This document shows positions 11,683-63,296 of a stretch of 64,000 nt of DNA, piece after piece. Under the pieces are notes generated by a model. That model was not told the DNA's origin and searched no databases. It worked only from the letters and a program-made list of their open reading frames with translations. Source of the DNA: a virus; the IMG/VR virus record IMGVR_UViG_3300045988_117149; one strand, 5' to 3'. Each line of letters begins with the position of its first letter. Position 1 is the stretch's first letter. Both the position numbers and the translations under genes were made by a program.

Positions 11683-11694
11683 ATTTTTAAAAAT

Positions 11695-12120: not shown

Positions 12121-12131
12121 ATACTTTATTT

Positions 12132-13501: not shown

Positions 13502-13530
13502 ATTAGTCTGTCTTATGTAATTTTCATAGA

Positions 13531-13932: not shown

Positions 13933-13961
13933 ATTTTCTAAGATTTAAAAAGTGATAAAGA

Positions 13962-13989
13962 GAGGATAGGCTTTTTAGTTCCTACCCTC
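13962..13989 (-). terminator. hairpin terminator after the capsid gene
   Basis: GAGGATAGG / CCTACCCTC stem (8 of 9 pairs) with a 10-nt loop. On the minus strand it is followed by TTATCACTTTTT. Confidence 0.5.
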
Positions 13990-14023
13990 CCTTGGGAATT
14001 TATATAGATAAAACCGGACTACC

Positions 14024-15142
14024 TTATTCAAGGTTTACCATCAAGTAAGGGTCAACGTTCATGAATTCGGGGAATCCATTTTCGCTGAATCTCTTGTCGG
14101 CAGCCAGCAACAGAGTTGCATCCTGGTACATCTTAGAGAAACCAGTAGTCAAGCTAGCGTAGATAGCCTGAGTTTGGTTAGAAACGATTCTCTCTGATTC
14201 CAGCATCAACTGACGAGCAGTCAGCTTAATCAAAGCGGCAGATGTATCAATCAACAGCAACTGTTGGTCTGGAGTACCCGGATGGATGTAGAAGTCGGCA
14301 TTCTTGGGAACCGGAGACTTCACATTCAGTGTAGCTTCAGTTGTACCAGAGTGGCGGTCTTTGAATTCCGGCAAGTTCAACATTTCGATTGCTTGGTCTT
14401 CACCACCAATCATTGTCTGGAAGTTGCGTCCCATACGAGCAGCACGTACCCAGATATGCAAAAGGTCTTTGTAAGTGATACCGTTGGTTGTTTCGTATAC
14501 ACCGATTACCGGGGCAGACTCAGAGCCATCAGGGTTGTTACCATTGATAGCCACGTCCATAGCCAGAGTATCCAGAGCATAACCCAACTGAACACCAAAG
14601 TCACGAAGATAGATTCCCAAGACATCGAGTGAAACGTAGTTGCGAACTTCGTCAGTAAGTTTGAAACCTTTTCCGATTTTGAAGAGGCTAACTGATTTCT
14701 GTCCGAAGCTAACATCACCCAATGGGATAGTTTCTGCCTCGTTAACCTTTGCAGGTGCAGCATCCGACATGTTAACCATCGGCATGATTGCTTGCAAACC
14801 ATTGATAGGTTGGTCTGATGCAATGATGTTCGGATAGAACGGTGCCTGGCGCATACCCAGAGTGATAGCCGAGCGAATGATTTCCGGAACAATCCAACGG
14901 ACATTCTGCTGAGGCATAGTGAAGATATTCTGCATGGTATCAACTTTCGGATTGATTCCCATCTTTTCAAACAATTCATCTTCGGAAATACCCCATTTAC
15001 CGGTAACCAACTCTCCCAAGGTAATTTCTACAGGCTTCTTTTCCTGTGAACCGGAACGTACAGCTTCCAAGCTTCTTACCATTTCCGGCAGCTCATTCAT
15101 AAAATCCTGAGCCTTCATTTTTGTAATATCAATTTGTCCCAT
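14024..15142 (-). CDS. major capsid protein (HK97-fold type, 372 aa)
   Basis: Size and position (protease-scaffold, decoration-like gene, then this). Raised GC and codon bias typical of a highly expressed late gene. Followed by a terminator. Confidence 0.7.
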   Translation of the reverse strand: MGQIDITKMKAQDFMNELPEMVRSLEAVRSGSQEKKPVEITLGELVTGKWGISEDELFEKMGINPKVDTMQNIFTMPQQNVRWIVPEIIRSAITLGMRQAPFYPNIIASDQPINGLQAIMPMVNMSDAAPAKVNEAETIPLGDVSFGQKSVSLFKIGKGFKLTDEVRNYVSLDVLGIYLRDFGVQLGYALDTLAMDVAINGNNPDGSESAPVIGVYETTNGITYKDLLHIWVRAARMGRNFQTMIGGEDQAIEMLNLPEFKDRHSGTTEATLNVKSPVPKNADFYIHPGTPDQQLLLIDTSAALIKLTARQLMLESERIVSNQTQAIYASLTTGFSKMYQDATLLLAADKRFSENGFPEFMNVDPYLMVNLE

Positions 15143-24364: not shown

Positions 24365-24660
24365 GATACTTTTTTGATAGAGATGGTAATTATGCTGGGT
24401 CATCAATGCAAGGGTGGGAGGTAATACTCCTACTCTGCCTCCCAGTTCTTATTGTATTATTCTTTGTATTCCTTCCCTTAATTATATTGCATAAATATGC
24501 CTCTAGAGAAGAAGATAAGAAATTCGAAGAAGAACATCCGCAAATATTAAAAGTAGATTCTTATATTACCGGCTGGTACCCTTGGCATAGATATTCCCTT
24601 GCATATACCATCTCCCTTGTATGTTGGGTAATTGCAATGCTAATGGCTTTGACTAATTAA
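24361..24660 (+). CDS. small membrane protein (99 aa)
   Basis: Two hydrophobic helices. Its stop overlaps the convergent gene 24653..25411 by 8 nt. Confidence 0.45.
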   Translation: MRYFFDRDGNYAGSSMQGWEVILLLCLPVLIVLFFVFLPLIILHKYASREEDKKFEEEHPQILKVDSYITGWYPWHRYSLAYTISLVCWVIAMLMALTN

Positions 24661-25411
24661 TCTTGATTCTAAGCATAACCCTTTTAACATATCCGTTTAT
24701 CTTATTGCCCAGTATAAGTTCTATAAGTATACCTCCGGAGAAATCTGAAGGAGAAAGGTTTCCTTTTTTAACGGTAATAGAACCATGACTATAGGAACCA
24801 GAGGGAGTCCAATCGGATGGGTCTACTGTATCTATCTTATAATTAATGGCTTGAGAATATTCTCTATCACAACCATAAAATAAACCTTGAGCATCATAGA
24901 GACTCATATTAAAATAGAAATCAGAATAAGGTACCAATTGACTACCTTTTAAGTAGAGCTCGAATATAGCAGTGGGTTCTGTATATGAACCATTATCAGA
25001 CCAAGGGACCTTAGTTACAGGTATAAGTAAATATTCATCTTGAGATGCAGGTAAGGTACCTGAAGTTACATATTGACCATTATAGTTTAAGATATAGGGT
25101 AAGTCTTTATATGTAGTTAGAGAGTTCTTATCATACCTACCCCATATTTCTACATACATTGGGATATCTACTGCCTTCTGAGTGATTGTGATAGTGATAA
25201 CTTTACCAGTAGTGGCTTGGGTAAGAGTGATAGTGGCTGCTCTACTTGAAGAACCTGAGTTTGCAGAAATGTCTACTTCTAAATTGTAAGATACTGCATC
25301 ATTTGATGTCTTCTTAGTAAAAACCCAAGCATTACTTGATGAGATTGGTGGGTCATATGTGATACTTGTAGTAAAGTCAATAATATCTGACTTAGATACT
25401 TTACCATTCAC
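24653..25411 (-). CDS. BACON-like paralog A, body of the gene; 5' end displaced by a C9 tract
   Basis: SGSSSRAATITLTQATTGKVITITITQKA repeat end. The track start is a GTG inside an open frame. The true ATG is probably 25536 (see the repeat feature and findings). Confidence 0.6.
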   Translation of the reverse strand: MNGKVSKSDIIDFTTSITYDPPISSSNAWVFTKKTSNDAVSYNLEVDISANSGSSSRAATITLTQATTGKVITITITQKAVDIPMYVEIWGRYDKNSLTTYKDLPYILNYNGQYVTSGTLPASQDEYLLIPVTKVPWSDNGSYTEPTAIFELYLKGSQLVPYSDFYFNMSLYDAQGLFYGCDREYSQAINYKIDTVDPSDWTPSGSYSHGSITVKKGNLSPSDFSGGILIELILGNKINGYVKRVMLRIKIN

Positions 25412-25512
25412 TACAGTATCTCTATATGAGTGAATGGTAAAGGTCTTTTTGGTTGCATCTGAAGGTACTGTTATTTCCTGAGATGCGGCTCTGGTACTAA
25501 ATACCAGATTTA

Positions 25513-25521
25513 GGGGGGGGG
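25513..25521 (-). repeat. homopolymer C9 (plus-strand G9) in codons 6-8 of the paralog A leader
   Basis: ATG 25536 GAA AAT TTA AAT CCC CCC CCC TAA. One extra C reads through into 24653..25411. Confidence 0.9.
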
Positions 25522-25545
25522 ATTTAAATTTTCCATATCTTTCTT

Positions 25546-26169
25546 TTAATATTGATACATGTCAATTCTGTTACTAGCTATAATGTCCCCATAACTAAAT
25601 CGTATATAAAACCATCCAAAATAAGTTCCGGAACTTCCTCCCTTAGTAGAGATTACCATAGAATCAGTACCTTGAGTTTGGTCTGAAGCTATGGAGAAAC
25701 CACCATTAAAGGGACTTTGTTGAGATATCTCAAAGGTATCAGTAGTTCCCATTCCTTCAGTTTCGATAGTACCATCAGAATAGATATCTGATTTGAAAAC
25801 CTCGAAAATCATTCTGGATATAGTTGAATCTACATGGGTTTCATAAGTTTCTGTGTTGGCATCATAGATATAGTTTCCATTATCCGGATTACCTACACAG
25901 AAATATTTAGTTGAGATTATATATCTCTGAGGAACCTGAGAGTAATTAAGGGTAATCCTCTTACCGGATGCAGGTTGGAGAAGTACTATCTTACCACTTC
26001 GAGTGGAAGAGGTATTATTAGCTGGTACTGTAATGGTTAATTGGGAAGGAACCTCAGAAGTCTTAATAGTACTACCTGAGGGTAAATTCTGAGATTCCAC
26101 TTTCCAATTAGCAGCATATTCTTGAGCTAAGTTACCATTGATGTACTTATAGGTAATAGATTCAACCAT
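25546..26169 (-). CDS. BACON-like paralog B, body of the gene; 5' end displaced by a G7 tract
   Basis: SSTRSGKIVLLQPASGKRITLNYSQVP repeat end. The upstream frame is open back to the tract. The likely true ATG is 26260. Confidence 0.6.
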   Translation of the reverse strand: MVESITYKYINGNLAQEYAANWKVESQNLPSGSTIKTSEVPSQLTITVPANNTSSTRSGKIVLLQPASGKRITLNYSQVPQRYIISTKYFCVGNPDNGNYIYDANTETYETHVDSTISRMIFEVFKSDIYSDGTIETEGMGTTDTFEISQQSPFNGGFSIASDQTQGTDSMVISTKGGSSGTYFGWFYIRFSYGDIIASNRIDMYQY

Positions 26170-26222
26170 TACTACGGTAGTTTCTCCTGCCCCTGCAAAA
26201 CTTAAATCAAGGGTGGTGACCT

Positions 26223-26229
26223 CCCCCCC
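26223..26229 (-). repeat. homopolymer G7 (plus-strand C7) in codons 11-13 of the paralog B leader
   Basis: ATG 26260 ...TTC CGT AGG GGG GGA GGT CAC CAC CCT TGA. One fewer G gives ...RRGEVTTLDLSFAGAGETTVVMVESITYKY in frame. Confidence 0.9.
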
Positions 26230-26271
26230 TACGGAATGATACTACATTTTTCTTTTCCATATCCTTGAAAT

Positions 26272-27243
26272 TTATAAAGTGATTATTTGGTCTGATGAAG
26301 GCAATAGGAAAGTAGACCTTAATTGCCAAGTTTGATTAGTAAATCTATAAGCTGATATACGATCACCTGGGTAAGCCATTTCAGTACTACCATTTTGTAA
26401 ATTTACTCTTACACCCTCAGATTTTTTATACTTATGGACTGAGGTATCATCTAATACAGCGAAATTAAAATAAGCTGTACCAGTACTACCAGTTTGAGGT
26501 GTTTGCCCCTCTTTGAAGAAAGCTCCTGAAAAAGTGTTCAGAGGCCAATTGATTGTAAGGGTGATATCCTGTTCCGCAGCTTTCTGCCATATAGTCACTT
26601 CTCTACGTTGGTCACCACAGGTTACTAAGAGTGTTCCGGACCTTTCTGAAGAACCCGAGTTTGCTGCAGTTGCTTTAACTATAATTTGGTACCAATTAGG
26701 TGCACCTGCCATAATAGACCCATCTTTAACTGTAACCTTAGTTGCCCAAGAAGGAGTTACTCCTACGGATGGTTGTTTGGCCATTACCTCTCCATCACTT
26801 CGAGTCATATAAGATTGAACCATAATCGTAGTAGTATTACCTATATTAGCTCCTATGGTAGCACTTACATTCAATACACCTAAGAAGTAGGTATAAGTGA
26901 AGTTGGGTTCTTGACTTATAGGGAAAGATATAGTTTGACCAGATTCTCTCTGCTTAAATACAAGAGTATGGGTTCTGGCAGAGGAACCTGTATTCTCTTG
27001 CAGGGTGGTAAAAGTTACTTTGCAATCATTGCCCTCAAAAGCATATTTCACGCTTACCCAAGAGGGGATGCTGGATTCCATATCCCAATCTACATTAGTC
27101 TTCTGCCCAGTACTCTTGCCATTAATGTACTTGGTCTTATAGGAGTAGATATAGGTAGTCTTGGTATCCCCAACATTCTGACCTATCTCAAAGACCGATG
27201 CCCTGGGTGCAGCATTGGCTACTCTAAAGTTAAATTCGTTCAT
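26272..27243 (-). CDS. BACON-like paralog C, intact (323 aa, two repeats)
   Basis: TGSSARTHTLVFKQRESGQTISFPISQEP and SGSSERSGTLLVTCGDQRREVTIWQKAAEQ. Normal ATG with no homopolymer. Confidence 0.65.
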   Translation of the reverse strand: MNEFNFRVANAAPRASVFEIGQNVGDTKTTYIYSYKTKYINGKSTGQKTNVDWDMESSIPSWVSVKYAFEGNDCKVTFTTLQENTGSSARTHTLVFKQRESGQTISFPISQEPNFTYTYFLGVLNVSATIGANIGNTTTIMVQSYMTRSDGEVMAKQPSVGVTPSWATKVTVKDGSIMAGAPNWYQIIVKATAANSGSSERSGTLLVTCGDQRREVTIWQKAAEQDITLTINWPLNTFSGAFFKEGQTPQTGSTGTAYFNFAVLDDTSVHKYKKSEGVRVNLQNGSTEMAYPGDRISAYRFTNQTWQLRSTFLLPSSDQIITL

Positions 27244-48683: not shown

Positions 48684-49205
48684 TTAGGAGTTTTTAAGAA
48701 TTAATTTTGCTTGCTTATGAATTAACTTATATGGAGTTCTTAATACTTCACTAGCCATAAATACCATAAGAGTATTTCCAGGTACTTGTATATACATTAC
48801 CCTATCAACGTATTGGGCAATTAAATCTCCCAACTTGATACCTACAACAAAAAAGAATTCCTCTGCAGGCATAGAGTTATATCTCATACAAAGAATAGGC
48901 ACCTTATTACCTCTCTTTGCATCTTTAGAAGCTTGTTCCCAGAATTTGAGTATATCACAACCTTTGTTACCAAGCAGTATATGTTCAAACTTAATCTCTT
49001 TATAATTTTTACACTCAACAGATATCTTACATCTATGAGCATGTCTTTCATCGGTACAGGTAAGGTCTGAAGTAGAATCCTTATTCGAATGCCAAGCTCC
49101 TGAGCCTGCCCGATTTCTTTCAAACTTAAACCCGGTCCACTTTGTAAAAAACCCAGCTATTTTCCTTTCAAATCTTGAACCCTTATTTTTGCTGTTTATT
49201 GACAT
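48684..49205 (-). CDS. PD-(D/E)xK nuclease, Holliday-junction-resolvase-like (173 aa)
   Basis: KGSRFERKIAGFF... D-x(n)-E-C-K (SDLTCTD...SVECKNYKE) pattern. Lies in the recombination module. Confidence 0.45.
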   Translation of the reverse strand: MSINSKNKGSRFERKIAGFFTKWTGFKFERNRAGSGAWHSNKDSTSDLTCTDERHAHRCKISVECKNYKEIKFEHILLGNKGCDILKFWEQASKDAKRGNKVPILCMRYNSMPAEEFFFVVGIKLGDLIAQYVDRVMYIQVPGNTLMVFMASEVLRTPYKLIHKQAKLILKNS

Positions 49206-49743
49206 AACAAAATTTATCTTTATACTTAATAAGACCCTTACCTTTCAAGATTCTACGAACTGAAGAAATATGAATCGGTAATATGTTAGCTATCTCTCTT
49301 ACACTTAAACCTTGATTATAAAGATTATGTACATCGTTATAATAAATAATCTTATTTGGGGTTGGTAAACAACCATCAAACCAAGCCTGTAAAGTATTAT
49401 CTAACTCAGTACCCCATTTAAGATTTTTAACTCTGCAATCCCTTTTGTTATTATTAAGGTGCATTACTACTGGTAGACCATCTGGGTTAGGAAGGTAAAT
49501 AGTAGCTACTAAACGATGTAATAACCAAGATTTTAAATCTATCTTACACTTTAAATAACTGTCGGGTTTACCATCTGAATATACAGAAATCCTTACCCAT
49601 TTGAAATCTCCAAGATATCTGTAAACTCTACCATTTTTAGAAACATAATAATTATGACCTGGTACATTGGGTTTCCATTTAGGCCTAATTATTATGTTTC
49701 TACCATGTTTTATAGCAGAGTATAAATTACTAAAGGTTTTCAT
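49183..49743 (-). mobile_element. free-standing HNH homing endonuclease (NUMOD4 + HNH_3 + C-terminal HTH), 186 aa
   Basis: YYVSKNGRVYRY (NUMOD4-like), LHRLVATIYLPNP...VMHLNNNKRDCRVKNLKWGT (HNH_3), LSVREIANILPIHISSVRRIL (HTH). Confidence 0.65.
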
Positions 49744-49772: not shown

Positions 49773-51485
49773 TTATAGTAATTGGTACCTACTAAGGCCG
49801 TTGGTTTTTTCCACTTGCAGGATTTTCGTATTACCAAGAGGAAGTGAGTCTAAATGAGTAATTAAGAATAGGGTTTTATCTTTGAATATATGTCTTATCA
49901 GGGAAGTTACAACCTCAACGTTATCTGAACTCAAAGATTCAAATACCTCATCTAAGAAAGCAAGATTTATACCTTTAGATGCAGTAAGAGCTTCATTCAT
50001 TGCAAAAGCCATTGCCACATTAACTAATTGTTTTTCTCCACCGCTAAGTTCATCATAATCAATGATTTGCCCATCTCTTTCAATAAGAGTAACAAATTCT
50101 TTTCTAGCAGTTCCTAAATCGATATTAAACTCTATCCTAAAACCTAATACCTCTGCATACTTATCCAAGCATTTGTTTAAGAACTCAAGTGATGAATCAA
50201 ATAAATATGCCTTGATTCCGTTATTTCCCAATGGGTCATTGATTAACCAATTGTAATTCTCTAACTCTGCTTCTTTGTTATGAAAGTCTTCATCAACCTT
50301 CCGTAAATTTTTCCTAATCTCTCTAAGCTTTTGTTTATACTTGGGAGACATGACTTTAAGTTTCTCTGCTTTGAGTTTAGATAAATCCTCATCAACAGTA
50401 GCAATGTCAGAAGCAATATCATCACATTCAGATTTTAGTTTCCTATACTTATCATTAACACTACTTAATTCCTCTAACCTCTCTAAAGCCTCTTGATACT
50501 CTTTATCATATTTGTCAAGGTCAGAGAATGCCTTATATATTGATTTAGCATCTCGCAATGCACGTTTGTAGTGGCCAGCTTCTAACTGTATTACTAACTC
50601 TTTAATTACCTTCTTAAGAGGTACATTAGATAAACTCTTAGCATCTTTTATCTTACCTCTTAAGTCCAAGATTACCTTATTCTGTTTCTTAATCTTTATC
50701 TGAATAGAAGCATCTACTTCATCCTTAATCTGTTTCTGTTTCTGTATAAGTAACGAAGTTAGCTTTTCTCTATCTTGCTTTAGTTCTCTCCGTTCTTCTT
50801 TTATACGTTTCTTAAAAGACTTTTCCCTGTCACGTAAATCAAAGTAAGCCTCTTTGTTAACCTCTAATTCCCTTTTAAGAATTTGAGATTGGTGTTCTAC
50901 CTCGTTTATCTGGGCAATTACATTATTCTTATCCTGCAATGCAATGCCTTTGGCAAGGTTTAAGAATTCTAAGTCAAATACTTCTTCGAATATCTTTTTC
51001 TTATCCGAATTAGATTCTTGTATAAGTCGTTTGATACCTTGTCCGAACATGATTGAATTCATGAACAGTGTATATGATAACCCTATTTCTCTATTTATTA
51101 CGTCCTGGATTTTACCTTTCCCTTTTACATCGATAGTATCACCATCCTTGATAATGATAAGCCTATCTTTCCCTTTAGACCCATCATCAAGTAAACCGTC
51201 ATACTTCTGACAACGTATTACTTTATATGTATGAGAATCTTTTTGAAAGTATACCTGGACTTTGGTACCTTGGTATTCTTTGGGTCTTATCTGTTTCCAG
51301 GTGTTTACCTCAGATACACCCTTTAGGTTTTTCCCATATATTGCCCATACCAATGCAGATAAGATAGTTGACTTACCTTTCCCATTTGGTGCCTTGATTA
51401 GCATGATACAAGTGGGGTTTAATTGTAAGTGTAGGGATTCTATTGAACAAAAACCCTCTACATCCATATTTAGGAATGTTAACAT
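49773..51485 (-). CDS. sbcC: SbcC/Rad50-like (T4 gp46-like) recombination ATPase
   Basis: Walker A APNGKGKSTIL, a long central coiled coil, signature LSGGEKQLV, and Walker B LAFLDEVF. Confidence 0.85.
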   Translation of the reverse strand: MLTFLNMDVEGFCSIESLHLQLNPTCIMLIKAPNGKGKSTILSALVWAIYGKNLKGVSEVNTWKQIRPKEYQGTKVQVYFQKDSHTYKVIRCQKYDGLLDDGSKGKDRLIIIKDGDTIDVKGKGKIQDVINREIGLSYTLFMNSIMFGQGIKRLIQESNSDKKKIFEEVFDLEFLNLAKGIALQDKNNVIAQINEVEHQSQILKRELEVNKEAYFDLRDREKSFKKRIKEERRELKQDREKLTSLLIQKQKQIKDEVDASIQIKIKKQNKVILDLRGKIKDAKSLSNVPLKKVIKELVIQLEAGHYKRALRDAKSIYKAFSDLDKYDKEYQEALERLEELSSVNDKYRKLKSECDDIASDIATVDEDLSKLKAEKLKVMSPKYKQKLREIRKNLRKVDEDFHNKEAELENYNWLINDPLGNNGIKAYLFDSSLEFLNKCLDKYAEVLGFRIEFNIDLGTARKEFVTLIERDGQIIDYDELSGGEKQLVNVAMAFAMNEALTASKGINLAFLDEVFESLSSDNVEVVTSLIRHIFKDKTLFLITHLDSLPLGNTKILQVEKTNGLSRYQLL

Positions 51486-52441
51486 GATTCAGCCTTTTTA
51501 AGTGTTTCGATTAATAGATTAGTTTTTACCTCATCTTTAATGCCTTTCTCTTTTAGGTATCTCTTTGCTAGAGTTTTCTTAGAAAGTTGCTTAGTAATCT
51601 TATGTTTGTTATTAACTGGAGTACTAGCTTTTTGAGGAATTATGGTATAATAATTGCCATCATCCTTGATATCTTCTTCGGATTCTACATCCTTGAATTT
51701 TGGGAAACCTTTCAGAGGTACAAACTCCATGGATAGGTCTTCATATATTTTCCAATACCCAAGTTTGCAATTCTTATCTGTTCTTCTCTGTTGGTTAGGA
51801 GCCCCAATCATATAAACCTTTTTCCCAAGCCTTTGAGGTTTATGTATATGTCCACATAATACCAAGTCAAACCTATTCAGGGTATTCAGATTTAGGTTCT
51901 CTACAGAATCTATTTCCCTACCATCGGTATCCTTTGCTCCCGGGTAATCCGTATGAAGAAGAAGTATATGCTTTTTACTCTTATCTAATTTGAGTTCTGA
52001 AAGATACTTACTTATTCCGATATTATTATCAATATATGGAACCCCATGCACTTCTATTTCTTTGTGATATCCGGATAGTATACGAGTAGTGTAGTCTATT
52101 ATCTCTATACCATATCTTTCTACTGTATACAACCAACTGTAGGGTGGATTACCCACTCTACTTACCTTCTTAATATCATGGTTGCCCGATATAGCATATA
52201 TCCAAAGACCTCCCAATTTATTGAGCTCATTATAAACTATCTCTGAAAGGTCTTGGTCCATAGTCTCTGCCTTATGAAATAGGTCTCCACAGAATAGAGC
52301 AGGACAATTGTACTCTTTACATACTTTCTGTATAATCGACAAAACCCTGAACGAATTCAGGGTCCTGTGGTTATTGTCATTGAACTTAGCCCAGAGATTT
52401 ATGTGTAAATCTGAGAAAGCTACTGCAATTACATCTTTCAT
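51479..52441 (-). CDS. sbcD: SbcD/Mre11-like (T4 gp47-like) nuclease
   Basis: Phosphoesterase motifs AFSDLH, GDLFH, GNHD, LLLHTD and CGHIH. ATG 52441 forms an ATGA overlap with the upstream stop, whereas the track start 52516 overlaps 79 nt. Confidence 0.8.
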   Translation of the reverse strand: MKDVIAVAFSDLHINLWAKFNDNNHRTLNSFRVLSIIQKVCKEYNCPALFCGDLFHKAETMDQDLSEIVYNELNKLGGLWIYAISGNHDIKKVSRVGNPPYSWLYTVERYGIEIIDYTTRILSGYHKEIEVHGVPYIDNNIGISKYLSELKLDKSKKHILLLHTDYPGAKDTDGREIDSVENLNLNTLNRFDLVLCGHIHKPQRLGKKVYMIGAPNQQRRTDKNCKLGYWKIYEDLSMEFVPLKGFPKFKDVESEEDIKDDGNYYTIIPQKASTPVNNKHKITKQLSKKTLAKRYLKEKGIKDEVKTNLLIETLKKAESC

Positions 52442-53019
52442 AATAAATGTCCTTTTATCTGACTGAGTCTGGTATTCAAATCCAATTGAGGTATAACCAA
52501 AGTTGGTATTTCCCAATCTGCAAGAAGTTCTCCCATCATTCCTGATATATGTACTTGATAATACCGATTAGTGATTCTTTTATGATTATCTTCCATATTC
52601 CAATCCTTATAAGTTGACATGCTTAATGGAAGGTATATTGCTAAGTCACATTGACTTCTCATAAGAGTTCCACATTTACAGAAAAAATCTTCTAATTCGC
52701 ATTCAGGGAGATGTCTATCTTGTTTATACCAAAAGTAAGCAGCTAAATCTGCATAACTACGGTCTGTAACAAATGTTTCCTTATCCCTGAACAATCTATT
52801 TCTCAAAGTTAACAGTTGATAATCTGATTGTTGTAAACTCTTCGAACCAAGAGATAATAACTCTGAGTGAGTTATATCTTTAGTAGCGGGGAGTAAATCA
52901 CTCATACTACCAGAGATAAAAGGAATCCCACAAATCTCTTCTACTGCTTTTGCCAATGTAGTTTTCCCTATACCTGAGGGACCTACAAACATTATTCGTT
53001 TTGGTTTAATCCATTCCAT
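52438..53019 (-). CDS. P-loop kinase, candidate dNMP kinase (193 aa)
   Basis: FVGPSGIGKTTLAKA Walker A, the size of small nucleotide kinases, and replication-module context. Confidence 0.45.
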   Translation of the reverse strand: MEWIKPKRIMFVGPSGIGKTTLAKAVEEICGIPFISGSMSDLLPATKDITHSELLSLGSKSLQQSDYQLLTLRNRLFRDKETFVTDRSYADLAAYFWYKQDRHLPECELEDFFCKCGTLMRSQCDLAIYLPLSMSTYKDWNMEDNHKRITNRYYQVHISGMMGELLADWEIPTLVIPQLDLNTRLSQIKGHLL

Positions 53020-55525: not shown

Positions 55526-56338
55526 TTAAATATCCGACTTATATTTTTTCTTCTTTTTCTTGGGTTCATCATCTTCCATGTAATGGTCTTTGTGAATACC
55601 CTTTTTCTTTTTCTTCTTTTTAGGTTCGTCATCTTCAGAGTCATGGTCCTCGTTGAGATACTGTGCAAGTAGTTTCTCAAGTTCATCATAATCTTTTATC
55701 TGAGAACGAACGATGTTTTCCAAGTCTACGTTACCTTGGTATTTCTTATCCAACTTAGTTGGTTTGCAAGCACGGGCAGAATAGGTAGTGTCTAACTTAC
55801 CTGAACCAGAACGGATGATTTTAATATCGTATCCAGTTCTTGGGTCTGTCATATCACCAGCCTCATCCTCATCAAGGTAAAGGTCAATTATATCCTGATA
55901 TACTGAGCGAGGTACTAAAACTCCCTTATCTTTCCCGTCGTAATCGAATTTAGTACCCTTTTCATCAGCATATACTGGTCCACCAATAACGTACCTTCTT
56001 CTTGGTACAAGGTTCTTTGCAAGTTCCTTGTCATCCTCATCTTTGGAATTTTTCAGTTCTTGATACTTTTCCATAAATGGGCAAGGCTCATCGAAAGTAG
56101 CAGGAGATATAACTCCACCCAAATTACCTCCCAGATAGAATTGGATAATCTCTATACCCAATTCTTGGTCATCACCTGGGGATTTAATTCTCATGCGTAA
56201 TGTACCTTCTTTGGGATATACCAATCCATTACCGTTTCCCTTAGACTCTAGCTGTTTTTTTCTAGCTAGCATCTTTTCCTTAGTAGAAAGTCCTTCTGAA
56301 GATACTTTCTTTTTCTTTTTGTCCTTGTCTTTTATCAT
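55526..56338 (-). CDS. putative ssDNA-binding protein (gp32-like architecture, 270 aa)
   Basis: Basic N-terminus, an OB-sized core with a CP...motif, and an acidic/basic tail. Sits beside the recombinase and chaperonin genes. Similarity to T4 gp32 was judged only from memory. Confidence 0.4.
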   Translation of the reverse strand: MIKDKDKKKKKVSSEGLSTKEKMLARKKQLESKGNGNGLVYPKEGTLRMRIKSPGDDQELGIEIIQFYLGGNLGGVISPATFDEPCPFMEKYQELKNSKDEDDKELAKNLVPRRRYVIGGPVYADEKGTKFDYDGKDKGVLVPRSVYQDIIDLYLDEDEAGDMTDPRTGYDIKIIRSGSGKLDTTYSARACKPTKLDKKYQGNVDLENIVRSQIKDYDELEKLLAQYLNEDHDSEDDEPKKKKKKKGIHKDHYMEDDEPKKKKKKYKSDI

Positions 56339-56342
56339 AATA

Positions 56343-56735
56343 TTAATTTTGATTGTTCGGTTCTGAGTATACTATCTCATTCATAGACAGTACCGTAAGA
56401 TTGTTCTTCTCCAAAAGTTGTTGCAATGCAGGAGATAATTCATCGGTTGGGAATTCAAGTTCCTTGCCTGCATACAAACCATAGGTAACGATATTACCAA
56501 TCTTTACCAAATCCCGGTAGGTTTTGTATTCCTCTGTGATTTCCCCACTCTTTACTACCACGCCCTTACGAGGTACTCCCTCTTTTACTTGTTCCGGAAT
56601 GATAAGCCCAGATTTAGTTTGGTTTACTTCTTTCGGTGATAGGATAAGTACCCGATTTTCGGTTGGGCATCCCGGTAATTCTTGATTGAATTTCTCAGCT
56701 ACAAGAGTTGAGATAAATGACATTGAATAATTCAT
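56343..56735 (-). CDS. groES: GroES-like co-chaperonin (130 aa)
   Basis: ENRVLILSPKEVNQTKSGLIIPEQVKEGVPRKGVVVKSG...VKIGNIVTYGLYAGKELEF parallels E. coli GroES (DRVIVKR.E.ETKSAGGIVL...G.V.AVG...VKVGD.V.F..Y.G). Confidence 0.6.
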   Translation of the reverse strand: MNYSMSFISTLVAEKFNQELPGCPTENRVLILSPKEVNQTKSGLIIPEQVKEGVPRKGVVVKSGEITEEYKTYRDLVKIGNIVTYGLYAGKELEFPTDELSPALQQLLEKNNLTVLSMNEIVYSEPNNQN

Positions 56736-57714: not shown

Positions 57715-57936
57715 TTATGTAGACATAGTATCCTCTTTCCTCAAGTTGGTAGTTGTTTTTGCTGAATCTGAATGCTTTAAGCTAATTTTACAATTTGGGC
57801 AATGTACTACTCTAAAGATACTATTGTCAGCAACATTATATACTCGTTCTGTTTCACTAGTATCATATTCAAATTCGCAATCACAGCAAGGACATTTAGC
57901 TCGCCATACCGTGGGCCCGTTCAAAATCTTTTTCAT
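57715..57936 (-). CDS. zinc-ribbon protein (73 aa)
   Basis: CPCCDC...HCPNC. Confidence 0.5.
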   Translation of the reverse strand: MKKILNGPTVWRAKCPCCDCEFEYDTSETERVYNVADNSIFRVVHCPNCKISLKHSDSAKTTTNLRKEDTMST

Positions 57937-60187
57937 ACTTCTTTATTTGTTTGTTAAACCTTTCCTTGAATTGCTTGGTGTGAATATGCTTATACTTCTT
58001 ATGTTCTTCCATATATTCCTCAACTGAGAAATCTGGTTGAAGCATCTTGTTATAATCATACCCAGGAATAAAGGGTAATTCCTCTGCCATTGACCTACCA
58101 ATAGTAAAGTCCATATCCATATCTACATCATCTACTTGGAAACCAAAGTATTTCTTTGTACTTGGATTACGTAGAATATTCCAGATAGTATATACTGTCC
58201 AGGTGTTTATATCTTGTGGCTTAGAATACATATAAACCGCATCATGAACTGTACAAGCTTCTTTCATCATGGGCAATTTGCCTTGTCTCATTAACCAGTA
58301 TACAAGAATTGCTCCAAAGTTTGTCATATTTGCTGCAGCACCCTGACATGGGAAATTCAAACCTAATCGGATAGCATAAGCAACTTCTTGTTTATCGTTA
58401 GAATATATCTGAGGTAATCTTCTCTTAGTTCCGAATAATTGGGTGTAATAACCATTCTTACGTAAGAACTTCTCTTGCTTCTCTTTGAACTTAAGTATCT
58501 TTGGGTGTTTCTTAAAGAATTCATCCATTTCCTTACGAGCTTCTTCTTTCGAAACTATAATACCAGCTTTTGGGTCAGATAATTTAACTGCTAGAAGAGC
58601 ATCACCAATACCATAGATAAGTCCAAAAGCAATTTGTTTAGCTTGCTTTCTCCTTACCTTCCATAACTTATGGTCTGGGTGTGATTCATCCTCATATATT
58701 TTAGAAGCTTCCTCAATGGGTACTCCATACTTTGCTGCTGCTATACCAAGGTGAGGATCTACTCCCTTGGCAAATGCTTCAAGATAAGTTTCATCACCAG
58801 ATAAGTGAGCCATCATTCTTAACTCTGCTTGGGAGTAGTCGAATGCCATGTATAAATATCCGGGAGGAGCAACTAATTGTTTTTTGATATTGGGGTCTAC
58901 AGATGTCTTTGGTATCTGCTGCATGTTTGGGTCTGCAGAACTAAACCTATTAGAGTCAGTACCATGTATATTATATCTACCATGTAATCGAGAGTCATCT
59001 TGTACTTTCTCCCACCATCCATAAATATAAGTCTTATACATTTTCTCTAACCCTCTAAGTTCCAATAACTTGTCAAGGAATATTGCTTTTGGTGATTCTG
59101 GGTTTTCTACCTTAAGCCTTAGATTAGTTAAAGTTTCCTCATCTGTACTTGGTTTACCAGATTCATTATCCTTGATTACCTCAAAATTAAACCCATGCTT
59201 TGAATACATAAGTGCAGGCAAATCAACTGGACTACCAAGGTTAATTGGTCTTATCAAATCCTGTTCCTTTTTAGTTGTGAATATACCTGCCTTGATATTA
59301 GATATCTTCTGTTCCCTTGATGCAATCTTTCGTTTGTCTTTTGGGTCATTATAATCTAACTCTTCAAGTTCTGCTTGGATAGCTTCTATATATTTATCAA
59401 TCTTAGCCTGGTTAAATCTCTTTTCGAATTTCTTAACTCTTGGCAAGTCGTATATTGCTTGTCTAGCAGCATCAATCTTTGGCTTATATTCTTCCAGAAG
59501 CTTTTTATTGAACTCGGTATCTACATATAATCCCTCTTTCTCTACAGAAGTAAGTACTCGAGAATTACACATAAATAAATTACGAAATACTGAATACATT
59601 CCCAAGTCAATTAACTTCTTCTCAAAGAATAGCATTAATCTCAAAGTATAATCTGTATCTTGACACCCATAATGGCAAAGTGGGTCTAATTCTTTTTTAT
59701 CCCAGGGTATCTTATCAAAAGCATCCTGCTTTTCATAATTACCATATTCTGGCAAATACCTTCTTACCATTGATTTTAGGTCATGTGGTTTTTCTTCATT
59801 GAGTACGTATTTTGCAAGCATACCATCTAAGCAAGTACCCCTATAGAATATTTTATACTTCTGATTTATCTGGTCATCAAATTTCCAGTTCCAGGCAACC
59901 TTAACTACATCGTAATTTTCGATTACCTCTTCCCCAAATTTCCTTAGCATCTTTTTCCAATTCCATCCTGGAGCAGTATATTCTTTAGTCTGAAAATGGT
60001 CTAAAGGTATAGAAGCACCAAATCCTGGCATCCAAGATACTGATAAGATTGTTGGTTTAAAAGATTTGTTGTATATGGGTTCTGCATTGGTTTCATAGTC
60101 ACAACAAGCATAACCCGTTGCTATACAACAAGCAATAAGTCGTTTGAGTTCTTTCTTGTTTCTTATTATCTTATATCTTGTCTCCAT
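57896..60187 (-). CDS. polA: family A DNA polymerase with 3'-5' exonuclease domain
   Basis: Exo I CCDYETNA, motif A DYSQAELRMMAHLSGDE, motif B RRKQAKQIAFGLIYG, motif C TVHDAVYM. ATG 60187 (METRYKII) is preferred over the hydrophobic track extension to 60232. Confidence 0.9.
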   Translation of the reverse strand: METRYKIIRNKKELKRLIACCIATGYACCDYETNAEPIYNKSFKPTILSVSWMPGFGASIPLDHFQTKEYTAPGWNWKKMLRKFGEEVIENYDVVKVAWNWKFDDQINQKYKIFYRGTCLDGMLAKYVLNEEKPHDLKSMVRRYLPEYGNYEKQDAFDKIPWDKKELDPLCHYGCQDTDYTLRLMLFFEKKLIDLGMYSVFRNLFMCNSRVLTSVEKEGLYVDTEFNKKLLEEYKPKIDAARQAIYDLPRVKKFEKRFNQAKIDKYIEAIQAELEELDYNDPKDKRKIASREQKISNIKAGIFTTKKEQDLIRPINLGSPVDLPALMYSKHGFNFEVIKDNESGKPSTDEETLTNLRLKVENPESPKAIFLDKLLELRGLEKMYKTYIYGWWEKVQDDSRLHGRYNIHGTDSNRFSSADPNMQQIPKTSVDPNIKKQLVAPPGYLYMAFDYSQAELRMMAHLSGDETYLEAFAKGVDPHLGIAAAKYGVPIEEASKIYEDESHPDHKLWKVRRKQAKQIAFGLIYGIGDALLAVKLSDPKAGIIVSKEEARKEMDEFFKKHPKILKFKEKQEKFLRKNGYYTQLFGTKRRLPQIYSNDKQEVAYAIRLGLNFPCQGAAANMTNFGAILVYWLMRQGKLPMMKEACTVHDAVYMYSKPQDINTWTVYTIWNILRNPSTKKYFGFQVDDVDMDMDFTIGRSMAEELPFIPGYDYNKMLQPDFSVEEYMEEHKKYKHIHTKQFKERFNKQIKKYEKDFERAHGMAS

Positions 60188-60241
60188 AATTATAAATAGA
60201 AAGAGGGACATACCTACCAGTAGCAGATACATCCCTCTTAA

Positions 60242-61012
60242 TTAGTATTTATCTTGTAAATCTTCCAGATTAGAGCTCAAAGCTAACCAATCCTTCTTAT
60301 AAGCATGGAGAGAATCGATAGTATGATACAGATAACCTGGTTTAACCCCAACCTCTTGAGCAACATATTCCATAAGTCTCCATGCAAGATATACGTCATT
60401 ACCAAAGTGAGTAACAAAATCTGAACTCCTTTGGTGATAACAAATATGTAATACCTTTTCTCCCTTACCATTCTCTCGGATAAGGAAATCATAATACATG
60501 GAACATGGGATACGTTTACTACCATCGAGATATCTTAAGTCTGAACCAAAGAATATTGGGAGTACTGCTTTCCGAGTATCACTATCCCTTTTAAGCAATT
60601 CGATAACCGTTTGTAGATGATATTCAGAATTGAACGGTAGTTTACCACCAACTGGGAATTCTTTCCAAATTCTCTCTGGGTAGGTATAATCAAACTTACC
60701 ATCTACCAAGAACTGTTCCCATAAATCCTTTCTCAATTTCCAAGCTTTTCCTGGGTTATAATCGTACCAACCAATTCTTTCCTTAAATTCGGCATCTGCC
60801 CATTCTTTTGACTTTGAGAATATAAACAACCATACTGGGTCTCCCAAAGATGTCAAGCAATATTGTTGGCAAATTACTTCCTTGGTTATAAAGTCATCAT
60901 TACCCTCGATGACTTTATTCTGATAGGTCTTTGGTTTTACAGTTTGACCATAACTGTTGAGCTCTCTGCCCAATTCGGACATTAGCTCGAATGAATTACT
61001 GAATATTCTCAT
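60242..61012 (-). CDS. ThyA-fold pyrimidine-nucleotide C5 transferase, dCMP-hydroxymethylase-like (256 aa)
   Basis: LLKRDSDTRKAVLPIF, catalytic RIPCSMYYDF, HQRSSDFVTHFGNDVY and DSLHAY align with ThyA (DPDSRRIIVSAW, APCHAFFQF, YQRSCDVFLGLPFNIASY, GDTHLY). The residue aligned with ThyA N177 is Asp, as in T4 gp42 (MRSNDVVFGFRNDYAW). Confidence 0.65.
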   Translation of the reverse strand: MRIFSNSFELMSELGRELNSYGQTVKPKTYQNKVIEGNDDFITKEVICQQYCLTSLGDPVWLFIFSKSKEWADAEFKERIGWYDYNPGKAWKLRKDLWEQFLVDGKFDYTYPERIWKEFPVGGKLPFNSEYHLQTVIELLKRDSDTRKAVLPIFFGSDLRYLDGSKRIPCSMYYDFLIRENGKGEKVLHICYHQRSSDFVTHFGNDVYLAWRLMEYVAQEVGVKPGYLYHTIDSLHAYKKDWLALSSNLEDLQDKY

Positions 61013-61922
61013 TGTTCTTCTGTTTTAAGAGTTTCTTCTTATATGCTTTTCTCTGAGAGTAAGAGATTACATTCTCTGGGTACTCAATATCTTCATACTC
61101 GAGAAGTAATTCTTTTGCTTTCATTGATTTATATGTTTCCTCATATAAGTCTGGTCTGAGTACTTTGAAACTTCTAAAGAATACCTTGAAAGATGAGAAG
61201 TCTTTCTCTTGGCCATTCTTAAATTTCTTCCATATCTCTTTTACCCTTTTATTCCAGGCATTCTCTTCTGCCCCCTTGAGTACTTTCTTCAAGGGTTTAT
61301 GAGTATGATACATCAAGAGGGTCTCTACATTCCCGTACATCTGTGTCGCAAATAGGTTGATTTGTACTGACTGGTCTGGCCCATACACATATTCTGCCAT
61401 CCGTTGAATCAATAGGAAGTCGAATATCAACCGCTTGGTAATTTCCGAAGCACGGATTACCATTGTAATAACTGGTATGTCTTCCCCAAACCTTTTCGAA
61501 AATGTTGCAGCTATCAAACATTGTTTTCCATTATCATGATGATTATTAAACATATAGGTTATATTGTAATTCTGATTGTACTTATTTCTCAGTACTCTCA
61601 GTTTACTACGCAACAAGTCAAGCTTATTAAAATCTATGTAGTTATTCAATAAGCTAGTCCACTTAGTTTCTTTGTAATTGAAACACCTACCATAATCAAA
61701 TTCGGGGTCTACCCAAGCCTTTCGTATTTTAATAAATACGTTATATACTACGGCTACCCCAGAATTTGCTATTGCCCCTTTCTCAAAGAGAGCTGGGTCT
61801 AATCGAAGGAACCCTTCATTTAGTTTTTCCCATGCTTCTTGAGATGTGGCGAATTCTAACGAATGGAGGGACTCCTCCGCATTAAGCTGAAGCCCATCTA
61901 ATTTCTTATTCCATCCACTCAT
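60996..61922 (-). CDS. second, divergent ThyA-fold paralog (308 aa)
   Basis: GKQCLIAATF...VITMVIRASEITKRLIFDFLLIQRMAEYV...ATQMYGN is collinear with RIPCSMYYDF...LHICYHQRSSDFVTHFGNDVYLAWRLMEYV...DSLHAYKK of the neighbouring gene. Confidence 0.4.
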   Translation of the reverse strand: MSGWNKKLDGLQLNAEESLHSLEFATSQEAWEKLNEGFLRLDPALFEKGAIANSGVAVVYNVFIKIRKAWVDPEFDYGRCFNYKETKWTSLLNNYIDFNKLDLLRSKLRVLRNKYNQNYNITYMFNNHHDNGKQCLIAATFSKRFGEDIPVITMVIRASEITKRLIFDFLLIQRMAEYVYGPDQSVQINLFATQMYGNVETLLMYHTHKPLKKVLKGAEENAWNKRVKEIWKKFKNGQEKDFSSFKVFFRSFKVLRPDLYEETYKSMKAKELLLEYEDIEYPENVISYSQRKAYKKKLLKQKNNENIQ

Positions 61923-61923
61923 A

Positions 61924-62754
61924 TCAATAATTGGTATTCTGTCTCCAGAGATTTAACCTTTGTTTCTTATAGAATAACCTAAATAGGTTTTCATCTGTAA
62001 ACCCATTCAATGCAAGGAATCCCATATACAAGTAGAATGATTTTACCAAAGCCTCCTGATAATCTAATTCCTTAGTCATCACCTGAGTTTGTTTCCAAGG
62101 CCTTGACTTTAATAGGTTTCTTGCCTTGTTCAATTCGTATATAACATCGAACAAGTGTAATTTCTCATCCTCATGTAGTACTTCGTTCAGATTATGGAAT
62201 CCCGGTGTATATTGTATCACTGATTCATAATTCGGAGTATGAGATGGGTGAATTACACAGTACCCAATCCTTTGCCCAGGATATTCGCTCTCTCCTGAAA
62301 TTAATATCTCCTTAACCCCAATAGCCATTACATCAAACAAGCTCTTTGCATTCTTATAGCTAAGAATATCTTCAGGAAGAATATTTGAATAAGCTAGAAG
62401 AGTAATATAGAAACCAATTGCATCAGCCTGTTCCTCATTTGCATTAGCTAAATGATTTAGTACTTCTTGATACTCCTCTTCGGTGAGATTATCAATATTC
62501 CAACCATATTTCTTAGTGAGTGTTACAGCAGCATCGGTTGATTCAAAACCTTCGGTGAGTTCTTCAATAACTCTACCAATAAAGTCCTTCAAAATAACTT
62601 GGCTTTTTGAGTTATTGATATCCAAAGGGTATACAGGTAATTTCTCTATATTCCTATACCCTTCGAATTGCTCAATGCCAAGTTTATAGATTTCCTGGAG
62701 TATGTTTTCTTGTGATACTTCAGGAACTGCTCCTTTTATATTTCGTATATCCAT
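61924..62754 (-). CDS. hypothetical; possible all-alpha NTP pyrophosphohydrolase (MazG/dimeric dUTPase-like, 276 aa)
   Basis: FIGRVIEELTEGFES and NEEQADAIGFYITLLAY resemble the paired EExxE / EExxD helices of MazG-like enzymes. Weak, by eye only. Confidence 0.25.
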   Translation of the reverse strand: MDIRNIKGAVPEVSQENILQEIYKLGIEQFEGYRNIEKLPVYPLDINNSKSQVILKDFIGRVIEELTEGFESTDAAVTLTKKYGWNIDNLTEEEYQEVLNHLANANEEQADAIGFYITLLAYSNILPEDILSYKNAKSLFDVMAIGVKEILISGESEYPGQRIGYCVIHPSHTPNYESVIQYTPGFHNLNEVLHEDEKLHLFDVIYELNKARNLLKSRPWKQTQVMTKELDYQEALVKSFYLYMGFLALNGFTDENLFRLFYKKQRLNLWRQNTNY

Positions 62755-62756
62755 AG

Positions 62757-63296
62757 TTATCTATCTCCTGTTGAACCAAAACCATTTGCTCCTCTACTTC
62801 CCCACATTTGAGATTCAGAATAATACTCCTCTTGTTGAATCTCCTCAGGCTCGGTAAGATATACAGGAACATGTATAAACTGTACAACCTTTTTCCCAGC
62901 TTCCAACCTAACAAGATAATTAGAGGTATTTACTATCCCAATATGTACTTCACCTACATAGGGAGAATCTACAATCTCGGCAGTAAAAATAAGACCTTGA
63001 TTTGTAGAAATACCCGATTTGTTTGAAGCCATAAGCATAGATTCCCTTGGTTCAATTAATACCTTGATACCTGATGGGATTAGTACTCGGCAATGGGGTG
63101 GTATTTCTATTACCTGAATATGATTTGTGTTTAAATCACAAGCATACCGAATTTGCTGTTCGGTATTTACCGAAGTACCCATCAATTCTATGGGTGTAAG
63201 GTTAGTTGGGATGTAAAAATCTAAACCGGCATCTCCGGCATTGCCTCTTGAAGGTGAGGGAACCTCTCTTACTTTTGTAAATCTTAATTTGTTCAT
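62757..63296 (-). CDS. dut: trimeric dUTPase
   Basis: GNAGDAGLDFY (motif 1-2), IVDSPYVGEVHIGIVN (motif 3), SRGANGFGSTG (motif 5). Confidence 0.85.
   Translation of the reverse strand: MNKLRFTKVREVPSPSRGNAGDAGLDFYIPTNLTPIELMGTSVNTEQQIRYACDLNTNHIQVIEIPPHCRVLIPSGIKVLIEPRESMLMASNKSGISTNQGLIFTAEIVDSPYVGEVHIGIVNTSNYLVRLEAGKKVVQFIHVPVYLTEPEEIQQEEYYSESQMWGSRGANGFGSTGDR

Follow-up and report, generated by a model that had tools for sequence, protein, structure and literature searches.

A putative variant of the phage cytosine-modification pathway built around a conserved pair of ThyA-fold proteins in a human gut phage

What does a phage make with an enzyme that has the fold of the thymidylate synthase ThyA and, at its base-specificity site, the aspartate associated with cytosine? 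The question is raised by IMG/VR virus record IMGVR_UViG_3300045988_117149, of which a stretch of 64,000 nucleotides (nt) was analyzed (the window, at its full length). Its positions 60242-63296 encode such an enzyme, here called ThyL, together with a protein called X, an all-alpha nucleoside triphosphate (NTP) pyrophosphatase and a dUTPase, directly before a family A DNA polymerase (PolA). The original prediction, made from the sequence without database searches, saw here the T4-like logic for a modified pyrimidine, possibly 5-hydroxymethyl-deoxycytidylate (5-hydroxymethyl-dCMP). The general idea, that a C5-modified cytosine is made ahead of replication by a route like that of T4, is supported at the sequence level by an Asp at position 177 throughout the ThyL clade, by the cytosine enzymes MilA and AfhB as nearest matches and by a neighbor of the T4 gp56 family. 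On balance, the locus probably represents a widespread, uncharacterized variant of the phage cytosine-modification pathway, in which a gp56-family pyrophosphatase is combined with an obligate pair of ThyA-fold proteins. Its logic would be like that of T4 gp56 (dCTPase/dUTPase), gp42 (dCMP hydroxymethylase) and gp1 (dNMP kinase), with the core enzyme in a different, uncharacterized class. The features on which this proposal turns are as follows.

60242-61012, minus strand: ThyL, ThyA-fold enzyme with the cytosine-type Asp, 256 amino acids (aa), from Pfam PF00303 and predicted fold
60996-61922, minus strand: X, predicted second, very divergent ThyA-fold protein, 308 aa, 1 nt after the 276-aa gene
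60996-61012, minus strand: overlap of the X end and the ThyL start, 17 nt, from the open reading frame (ORF) coordinates
61924-62754, minus strand: all-alpha NTP pyrophosphatase of the dimeric d(C/U)TPase family, 276 aa, candidate dCTPase, 2 nt downstream of the dUTPase gene

The catalytic core of ThyA described in the original prediction is present in ThyL, with PC (within RIPCS), QRSSD and HAY all found, and the protein matches PF00303 (Thymidylat_synt) with an E-value of 2e-13 (50.5 bits, cut-off 24.3). The references were E. coli ThyA from NC_000913, T4 gp42 from NC_000866 and the RB69-type enzyme; other reference enzymes were taken from GenBank. In the alignment RIPCS corresponds to LAPCH (Cys146), QRSSD to QRSCD (165-169) and the last Asp of FVTHFGND to E. 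coli Asn177 and T4 Asp179. The Asp of HQRSSDFVTHFGND does stand in this base-specificity column when aligned with E. coli ThyA and T4 gp42, and the T4 motif quoted in the original prediction, MRSNDVVFGFRND, matches the coding of T4 gp42 exactly. A small correction concerns the spacing, which had been put at thirteen residues after the Gln of QRS: the Asp lies 12 after it and is the 13th if the Gln is counted. Key residues of ThyL are, with E. coli numbers in parentheses, Asp206 (177), the nucleophile Cys170 (146), Arg167 (143), Ser171 (147), Asp198 (169) and Glu75 (58); E. coli numbering is used below.

A HMMER search of 1.84 billion cluster representatives returned 1,915 ThyL relatives at E<=0.001, and residues were counted in the 128 full-length representatives (50% identity clusters) among the best 150. 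Tyr94 is found in all 128, Asp177, Cys146 and Arg166/Ser167 in 126 each, and Asp169 in 124; the superfamily set of Cys146, Arg166-Ser167, Tyr94, Arg126 and His207 is kept by ThyL and by 125-128 of the 128. Since 126 of 128 representatives share it, Asp177 is a fixed trait of a large clade and not an accident of one sequence. In sequence searches of the PDB, AfhB, the dCMP hydroxylase of phage HY126 (9iqu/9iqc), comes first (9e-9), followed by MilA (1e-6) and thymidylate synthases (TS; 7e-4 or worse). The AlphaFold2 model (predicted local distance difference test, pLDDT, 93.4) gives a similar picture, as Foldseek places MilA first (1.1e-15, template-modeling score, TM, 0.75), then AfhB (4e-14), then TS (about 2e-13), and the best 50 of the 396 PDB matches at E<=0.001 all belong to the ThyA superfamily. 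The exchange of Asn177 for Asp is an experimentally established switch from deoxyuridylate (dUMP) to dCMP (PMC8670742, PMC13326640). Because Asp177 is invariant and MilA and AfhB are nearest in both sequence and fold, ahead of TS, ThyL is most probably of the cytosine-reading type.

Residue rules from characterized enzymes bear on the product. The water that gives the hydroxymethyl group is activated by an acidic residue, Asp or Glu, placed three positions ahead of the catalytic Cys (Asp145 in T4, position 143 in E. coli numbering), with Ser94 as its partner; the T4 D145N mutant is inactive, and Asp145/Ser94 were proposed by the authors as a hydroxymethylase signature (PMC6400193). Asp169Asn marks the flavin-dependent 5-hydroxy-dCMP synthases (PMC13326640). 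The C-terminal tail of TS seals the site for hydride transfer (PMC6400193), and ThyL is without that tail. The enzymes compared differ at these places as follows.

T4 gp42: Asp at position 143; Ser at the Ser94 site
SPO1-type dUMP hydroxymethylase (Goe9 gp29): Asp at position 143; Asn177
RB69-type enzyme: Glu at position 143; Asn169
PaMx74 5-methyl-dCMP synthase: Asn at position 143; TS-length C-terminal tail, 63 residues after His207
E. coli ThyA: Leu at position 143; 57-residue tail
ThyL: Arg at position 143; Tyr at the Ser94 site; Asp169; 20 residues after His207

The Arg of ThyL at position 143 is shared by 127 of the 128 representatives and is invariant in a 60-sequence alignment, and the site of T4 Ser94 (E. 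coli-numbered position 92), Tyr in ThyL, is His in proteobacterial-type members. With T4-type dCMP hydroxymethylases ThyL has in common the Asp at the base-specificity site (T4 Asp179). Of the features of canonical TS it lacks Asn177, the C-terminal tail (His207 is followed by 20 residues in ThyL, by 57 in E. coli ThyA and by 63 in PaMx74 gp52), the Leu143/Trp83 gate (Arg and Phe here) and His147 (Ser here). All NCBIfam equivalog models of TS stay far under their cut-offs, e.g., at 47.6 against 174.6 bits. The Asp169Asn mark of 5-hydroxy-dCMP synthases is not found; ThyL and 124 of the 128 representatives keep Asp at this position. For the 5-methyl-dCMP synthases, the comparison is with PaMx74 gp52 only, and no published signature was found; ThyL has Asp177 and no TS-like tail. 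By these residues, ThyL is of cytosine type and yet outside all four characterized cytosine/uracil product classes. Scores with the hidden Markov model (HMM) of the ThyL family run from 89 bits for the RB69-type enzyme to 66 for E. coli ThyA and 60 for T4 gp42.

The gene of X was left unmentioned in the original prediction, although it lies inside the interval. No match to X was obtained in Pfam, NCBIfam or, by sequence, in the PDB, either with the single sequence or with a profile; the protein falls in PHROG 34294, labeled 'unknown function'. By eye, it has a ThyA-core-like pattern, GKQC...IRASE...D. As the PDB sequence searches were empty, its fold is seen only by structure prediction and profile-profile comparison. 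The AlphaFold2 model, built with 23 homologues, has a pLDDT of 81.3 and a predicted template-modeling score (pTM) of 0.81, and the best 50 Foldseek matches in the PDB (TM 0.42-0.57) belong to the ThyA superfamily, the one exception being the match at rank 36, a hydrolase designed de novo. AfhB 9iqu leads (1.4e-5), followed by MilA, the T4 dCMP hydroxymethylase (dCH) and many TS. In BFVD, the nearest entries are 'uncharacterized protein' models, including the orthologue of phage PMBT14, and then annotated ThyA/dCMP hydroxymethylases. Comparison of X with the ThyA family by hhalign gives E-values from 3e-3 (shallow alignments) to 1.7e-4 (deeper ones) at a probability of 10-50%, and BLASTP of X against ThyL is not significant. 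In the register of this weak profile alignment, Tyr83 of X corresponds to Tyr94, Cys135 to Cys146, Arg157 to Arg166, Glu160 to Asp169 and Asp168 to Asn177, and these five residues of X are invariant in homologues down to 21-24% identity. X does not have the Arg126/Arg127 pair by which a ThyA subunit reaches into the active site of its dimer partner. On the predicted structure, X is another protein of the ThyA fold, one that has diverged beyond the reach of sequence profiles. PHROG 34294 and the uncharacterized proteins upstream of 'thymidylate synthase' in Clostridium perfringens phages, Serbin, PMBT14 and P744 are members of the X family. For this family, the literature searched offered neither a function nor an assigned fold nor an experiment; one member, ORF027 of Yersinia phage P744, is labeled 'pyrimidine hmase synthase' in GenBank.

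X and ThyL are adjacent in every lineage examined, i.e., in phages of Clostridium, Serratia, Pseudomonas, Yersinia, Gordonia and Brevundimonas and in all 25 informative IMG/VR loci. CPD4 and other C. perfringens phages have homologues of the pyrophosphatase, X and ThyL genes in the order of the window, with a small kinase before and PolA after them. Serratia phage Serbin, Pseudomonas phage PMBT14, Yersinia phage P744, Gordonia phage Vine and Brevundimonas phage Strzyga share this order from the kinase through the NTP pyrophosphatase, X and ThyL to PolA, usually with a cytidylate deaminase ahead of PolA, so that PolA follows the cassette in all six phages named. Literature searches turned up no experiment on the DNA chemistry of PMBT14, Serbin, P744, CPD4 or Strzyga. 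A scan of IMG/VR with the proteobacterial-type X gave 26 diverse loci, 25 of them with downstream sequence; an earlier scan with an alignment of the gut-type X had returned near-identical genomes only and was uninformative on diversity. ThyL comes directly after X in 25/25 of the loci that extend downstream, and each of these ThyL proteins has Arg143, Cys146, Asp169 and Asp177. The two genes overlap by 1-4 nt in Serbin, PMBT14, Vine, Strzyga and most of the IMG/VR loci, where the overlap is mostly 4 nt. The 17-nt overlap of the window is identical in close relatives and may be read as translational coupling.

Neighbors in the 25 loci include a dCMP/cytidine deaminase (23), PolA (19) and a PRA-PH pyrophosphatase (7). 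Deaminase, PolA and PRA-PH domains are also reported around Asp177 ThyA homologues on contigs that were experimentally enriched for modified cytosine, a likeness seen in the neighbor domains (PMC8670742; bioRxiv 10.1101/2024.12.05.627091). A member of the uracil-DNA-glycosylase superfamily (PF03167, best 5e-35) was also recorded in 18/25 loci, as some ORF among the five neighbors scanned in each. In total, ThyL comprises more than 1,400 protein clusters at 90% identity and X is found at 475 IMG/VR loci; database annotation calls all ThyL relatives 'thymidylate synthase' and X 'hypothetical'. The cultured Bacteroides fragilis phage BF486P2 departs from the pairing of an Arg143 ThyL with X and has two ThyA-fold paralogues (1865-2626 and 4698-5378 of the examined stretch), both with Asp143 and Asp177, together with a dUTPase and a P-loop protein.

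The remaining genes assigned a part by the original prediction, and the polymerase, are located as follows.

62757-63296, minus strand: trimeric dUTPase, 179 aa, the first gene of the block
57896-60232, minus strand: family A DNA polymerase (PolA), 778 aa, 9 nt downstream of ThyL
52438-53019, minus strand: P-loop protein, 193 aa, possible nucleotide kinase (Pfam AAA_28, PHROG 2107)

The interval and PolA, whose orthologue in relatives has Pfam DNA_pol_A_exo1 and DNA_pol_A on record, probably form a single tightly packed early operon. The identification of the 179-aa protein as a trimeric dUTPase was borne out: PF00692 matches at 3.3e-13 (50 bits, cut-off 22), all 58 of 58 PDB sequence matches are dUTPases (best 1.4e-10), and in its C-terminal RGxxGFGSTG the segment RGANGFGSTG aligns with motif V, which is present. 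The NCBIfam model dut also matches (1.4e-19), under its curated cut-off. The 276-aa protein had been called 'MazG-like'; it is indeed an all-alpha NTP pyrophosphatase, more precisely and most probably of the dimeric d(C/U)TPase or gp56 family. It matches the nucleotide pyrophosphohydrolases of PHROG 12184 (4.5e-18), and its family has invariant EExxE (E64/E65/E68), EExxD (E107/E108/D111), KxxPWKQ and K..N..RQ..Y (K264/N268/R271/Q272/Y276). Orthologues with 25-39% identity score 44.6 (CPD4), 33.7 (Serbin) and 25.1 bits (MT121964) in dUTPase_2 (PF08761), all above cut-off, and T4 gp56 itself scores 25.4 bits in this model. By hhalign, the family matches T4 gp56 with 71% probability (E 3.7e-5) over the C-terminal 47 residues. 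The family profile has a marginal MazG-like match in the PDB (E 0.22), so that the link to gp56 comes from Pfam and hhalign. Because a separate trimeric dUTPase covers dUTP, the dimeric enzyme may have another job, e.g., clearing dCTP, which is an argument from redundancy only.

As for the small P-loop kinase proposed 8 kb away, the gene and its P-loop exist, and a kinase role is hinted at by matches to Pfam AAA_28 (9.9e-9) and PHROG 2107 'thymidylate kinase' (1.1e-7). Its PDB matches are AAA+ P-loops and cover the P-loop only, and comparison with the kinases of the cassette in CPD4, Serbin and phiE142 showed no homology beyond the P-loop. Gene boundaries are uncertain in this region, as the P-loop gene is called with 232 aa in relatives (48% identity to the 193-aa protein), and would be overlapped for 79 nt by an Mre11/SbcD-like ORF (region 51479-53019) if the latter began at the earliest of its start codons, TTG at 52516. 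Directly downstream of the SbcCD-like genes are an HNH endonuclease with a helix-turn-helix domain (49183-49743) and a phage PDDEXK nuclease (48684-49205).

A hint at the product is provided by MT121964, a gut relative with 66% identity. There, X is duplicated (329 and 261 aa; 6000-10774 of the examined stretch), and exactly between ThyL and PolA are inserted an IspD-type cytidylyltransferase (1.4e-26) and a LicD-family phosphotransferase (8e-39), genes that are not in the window phage. Pairs of the IspD/LicD type activate phospho-alcohols such as choline, ribitol and glycerol and transfer them onto hydroxyl acceptors. Judged by where these genes lie, X and ThyL may make a base with a hydroxyl that can be decorated. 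The GenBank title of MT121964 also names a DNA cytosine methyltransferase elsewhere in the record. Its PolA (10895-14173 of the examined stretch) has 1092 aa against 778 aa in the window; the extra residues, about 310, lie inside the conserved IHG/T..RLSS motif and run from Cys to a last Asn before Thr, which looks like an intein with a homing-endonuclease-like module.

The proposed pathway would begin with the dimeric pyrophosphatase, which, judged from its family and from the trimeric dUTPase that covers dUTP, may hydrolyze dCTP (and dCDP) to dCMP and so remove the normal substrate while feeding the next step. ThyL would then bind dCMP, with Asp206 reading the N3/N4 face of cytosine and Cys170 attacking C6. 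Judged from the kept catalytic set (Glu58, Trp80, Tyr94, Arg126, Cys146, Arg166, Ser167, Asp169 and His207), ThyL would move a one-carbon unit from methylene-tetrahydrofolate to C5; because Glu58, Trp80, Tyr94, Asp169 and His207 are kept, folate-dependent one-carbon chemistry is favored over a flavin/O2 route. An exocyclic-methylene intermediate would result. X, given its invariable adjacency, may be an obligatory partner subunit of ThyL or the enzyme of a second step on the same cytosine nucleotide. The product would be phosphorylated by the phage P-loop protein or by host kinases and then incorporated by the phage PolA.

Several points weigh against this pathway. All of the evidence comes from sequences and structure models. 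ThyL does not show the T4 hydroxymethylase signature, having Arg for the essential Asp145 and Tyr for Ser94. The exocyclic-methylene intermediate would arise in an enzyme with an invariant Arg where T4 dCH has its water-activating Asp, and without the tail that serves hydride transfer in TS. The 276-aa protein of the window scores 20.6 bits in dUTPase_2 (PF08761), under the cut-off of 22.9, and may clear dCTP, a choice against dUTP that is not readable from its sequence. The possible kinase, with the matches given above, is 8 kb off, among recombination genes. No glycosyltransferase, deaminase, dihydrofolate reductase (DHFR) or methyltransferase was seen in 20 further ORFs of the window (Pfam) or in the 10 kb upstream in relatives (PHROG for unannotated genes), and the lack of the first three in the ORFs scanned is a further point of this kind.

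Restriction sites seemed to add another. Counted in the window (1-64000) against a first-order Markov expectation, GATC occurs 24 times where about 246 are expected (0.10); the observed/expected ratios are 0.14 for GCGC, 0.15 for CGCG and 0.26 for CTAG, and ATGCAT and CCTAGG are absent (about 16 and 14 expected). Close relatives have 0-2 GATC in 21 kb, and MT121964 is much less depleted (0.57). DNA with 5-hydroxymethylcytosine (5-hmC) resists Sau3AI, HhaI and BstUI in vitro, and avoidance of GATC, GCGC and CGCG would be unexpected, though not decisively so, if every C were protected. GATC is also avoided by T4 (0.27-0.33), an RB69-like phage (0.16), Serbin (0/44) and BF486P2 (0.03). In T4 and the RB69-like phage, cytosine is fully replaced. 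Because these two avoid GATC as well, avoidance does not discriminate, and site avoidance was dropped as evidence against full cytosine replacement after the comparison with these control phages.

Among the other explanations, the one closest to the original prediction is that ThyL alone is a T4-type dCMP hydroxymethylase, virion DNA has plain 5-hmC and X is irrelevant. Much in the locus resembles T4: a gp56-family pyrophosphatase adjoins a ThyA-fold enzyme with Asp at the specificity site, the block is near the phage DNA polymerase gene, and ThyL has the short C-terminus of gp42 and its Glu58, Tyr94, Cys146, Arg166, Asp169 and His207. The best fold match of ThyL is MilA, the CMP 5-hydroxymethylase of mildiomycin (PDB 5b6d, 5jnh), which is also its second-best sequence match and has Asp177, and the IspD/LicD genes of the relative suggest a hydroxyl acceptor. 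The published residue test, however, goes against the 5-hydroxymethyl-dCMP assignment. The hydroxymethylases compared, T4 gp42, Goe9 gp29 and MilA (the last per PMC13326640), all have Asp at position 143, and the T4 enzyme needs it (D145N; PMC6400193), whereas the ThyL family has Arg there in 127/128 representatives and in 25/25 IMG/VR loci, and Tyr or His in place of its Ser94 partner. MilA differs further in its ribonucleotide substrate, antibiotic pathway and size of about 320 aa. The family HMM places T4 gp42 below E. coli ThyA, the universal pairing with X would go without explanation, and X and the separate trimeric dUTPase have no counterpart in T4, whose glucosyltransferase is in turn not seen here in the ORFs scanned and whose kinase is unrelated to the P-loop protein or only uncertainly comparable with it. 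Thus, what stands of the T4-like logic is the ThyA-fold enzyme with Asp, the gp56-family neighbor and the trimeric dUTPase, and not the 5-hydroxymethyl-dCMP call; the distant kinase is a weakly supported candidate, and a plain T4-type enzyme is rather unlikely. A cassette like that of Xp12 (XP12) and PaMx74, in which ThyL, perhaps with X, would be a 5-methyl-dCMP synthase and C would be replaced by 5-methylcytosine, is a still weaker prospect. In 5/7 cases tested, ThyA homologues with Asp177 that have dCMP deaminase, PRA-PH and PolA as neighbors made 5-methyl-dCMP (bioRxiv 10.1101/2024.12.05.627091), X-ThyL relatives have those same neighbors, position 143 is non-acidic, and in both systems a pyrophosphatase is directly upstream of the Asp177 homologue near a family A polymerase. 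PaMx74 gp52, a 298-aa enzyme with Asn143, nevertheless keeps the TS-like tail that ThyL lacks, its pyrophosphatase is of the PRA-PH type, and it adjoins DHFR and has no X, while neither deaminase nor DHFR was seen in the window or its close relatives among the ORFs scanned.

An ordinary thymidylate synthase that supplies deoxythymidylate to an AT-rich genome (37% G+C), with Asp as a tolerated variant, is very improbable. It would fit the annotation of all relatives as 'thymidylate synthase', and two upstream enzymes hydrolyzing dUTP would supply dUMP; against this, Asn177Asp is the established switch (PMC8670742, PMC13326640) and Asp is invariant in the clade, His147, Trp83, Leu143 and the entire TS tail are missing, and the TS equivalogs stay far under their cut-offs. 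Hardly credible is a flavin/O2-dependent 5-hydroxy-dCMP synthase of the RB69 gp48/AfhB type. AfhB (9iqu, 9iqc) is the closest solved sequence (9e-9) and the second-best fold match, the RB69-type enzyme scores higher than T4 gp42 with the family HMM (89 bits), and ThyL has the small size, Asp177, Ser205 and short C-terminus of this type. It differs in having Asp169 (124/128) in place of Asn, Arg143 in place of Glu and a kept Glu58 that is lost in the RB69 type. The reaction needs O2, and the route is implausible because the phage hosts are strict anaerobes (C. perfringens, and Bacteroidota as judged from BACON domains).

Under the preferred reading of a gp56-family pyrophosphatase with an obligate ThyA-fold pair, a hydroxymethyl or hydroxyl-bearing derivative is the leading candidate for the C5 group, though short of an even chance; it is ranked first despite the failed T4 signature because of the IspD/LicD insertion in MT121964. 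A methyl group is clearly less likely, another, undescribed substituent somewhat less so again, and the absence of any DNA modification would be surprising. A bolder proposal, which is put forward as speculative, is that ThyL and X jointly make a C5-substituted deoxycytidylate that is neither methyl, hydroxymethyl nor hydroxy, a fifth product class of the TS superfamily. The invariant Arg might place an anionic or other non-water nucleophile on the exocyclic-methylene intermediate, or the Cys of X might re-activate the first product for a second substitution. If true, this class would span phages of Bacteroidota, Clostridium, Actinobacteria and Proteobacteria, with IspD/LicD decoration in some gut relatives.

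Close relatives of the window are complete metagenomic genomes of about 86-87 kb, and X is 100% identical to that of the window in several IMG/VR genomes, mostly of dataset 3300045988 (e.g., UViG_3300045988_037528, 86,249 bp). The window is probably derived from this population. The nearest GenBank records are the human-faecal phage contigs MT121964, MT836181 and MT121960, with 61-66% protein identity. BACON domains, typical of Bacteroidota-associated proteins and some gut phages, are present in three neighboring ORFs (252, 207 and 323 aa; 24653-27243), and a Bacteroidota host is suggested because of these proteins. In the replication module, Pfam matches of orthologues in relatives point to a gp32-type single-strand-binding protein (55526-56338) and a Cpn10/GroES-like protein (56343-56735).

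The T4-like cytosine-modification pathway itself is already known in phages; what appears to be new here, from sequences and models, is the recognition of X as a ThyA-fold partner and of the Arg143/Asp177 ThyL class as uncharacterized. The phage family that carries the cassette is among those assembled most often from the human gut, and the same X-ThyL pair is found in cultured phages of C. perfringens, Serratia, Pseudomonas, Yersinia and Gordonia. Phage base modifications decide the fate of phages against restriction enzymes and CRISPR and are a source of epigenome-sequencing tools. If the pair does not make a modified cytosine, the Asn177Asp rule for mining modified-cytosine phages from metagenomes has a large exception. 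If it does, a new class would have to be added to the published residue rules (positions 143, 169 and 177) by which the products of ThyA homologues are predicted, and many gut viromes would contain non-canonical DNA that current pipelines ignore.

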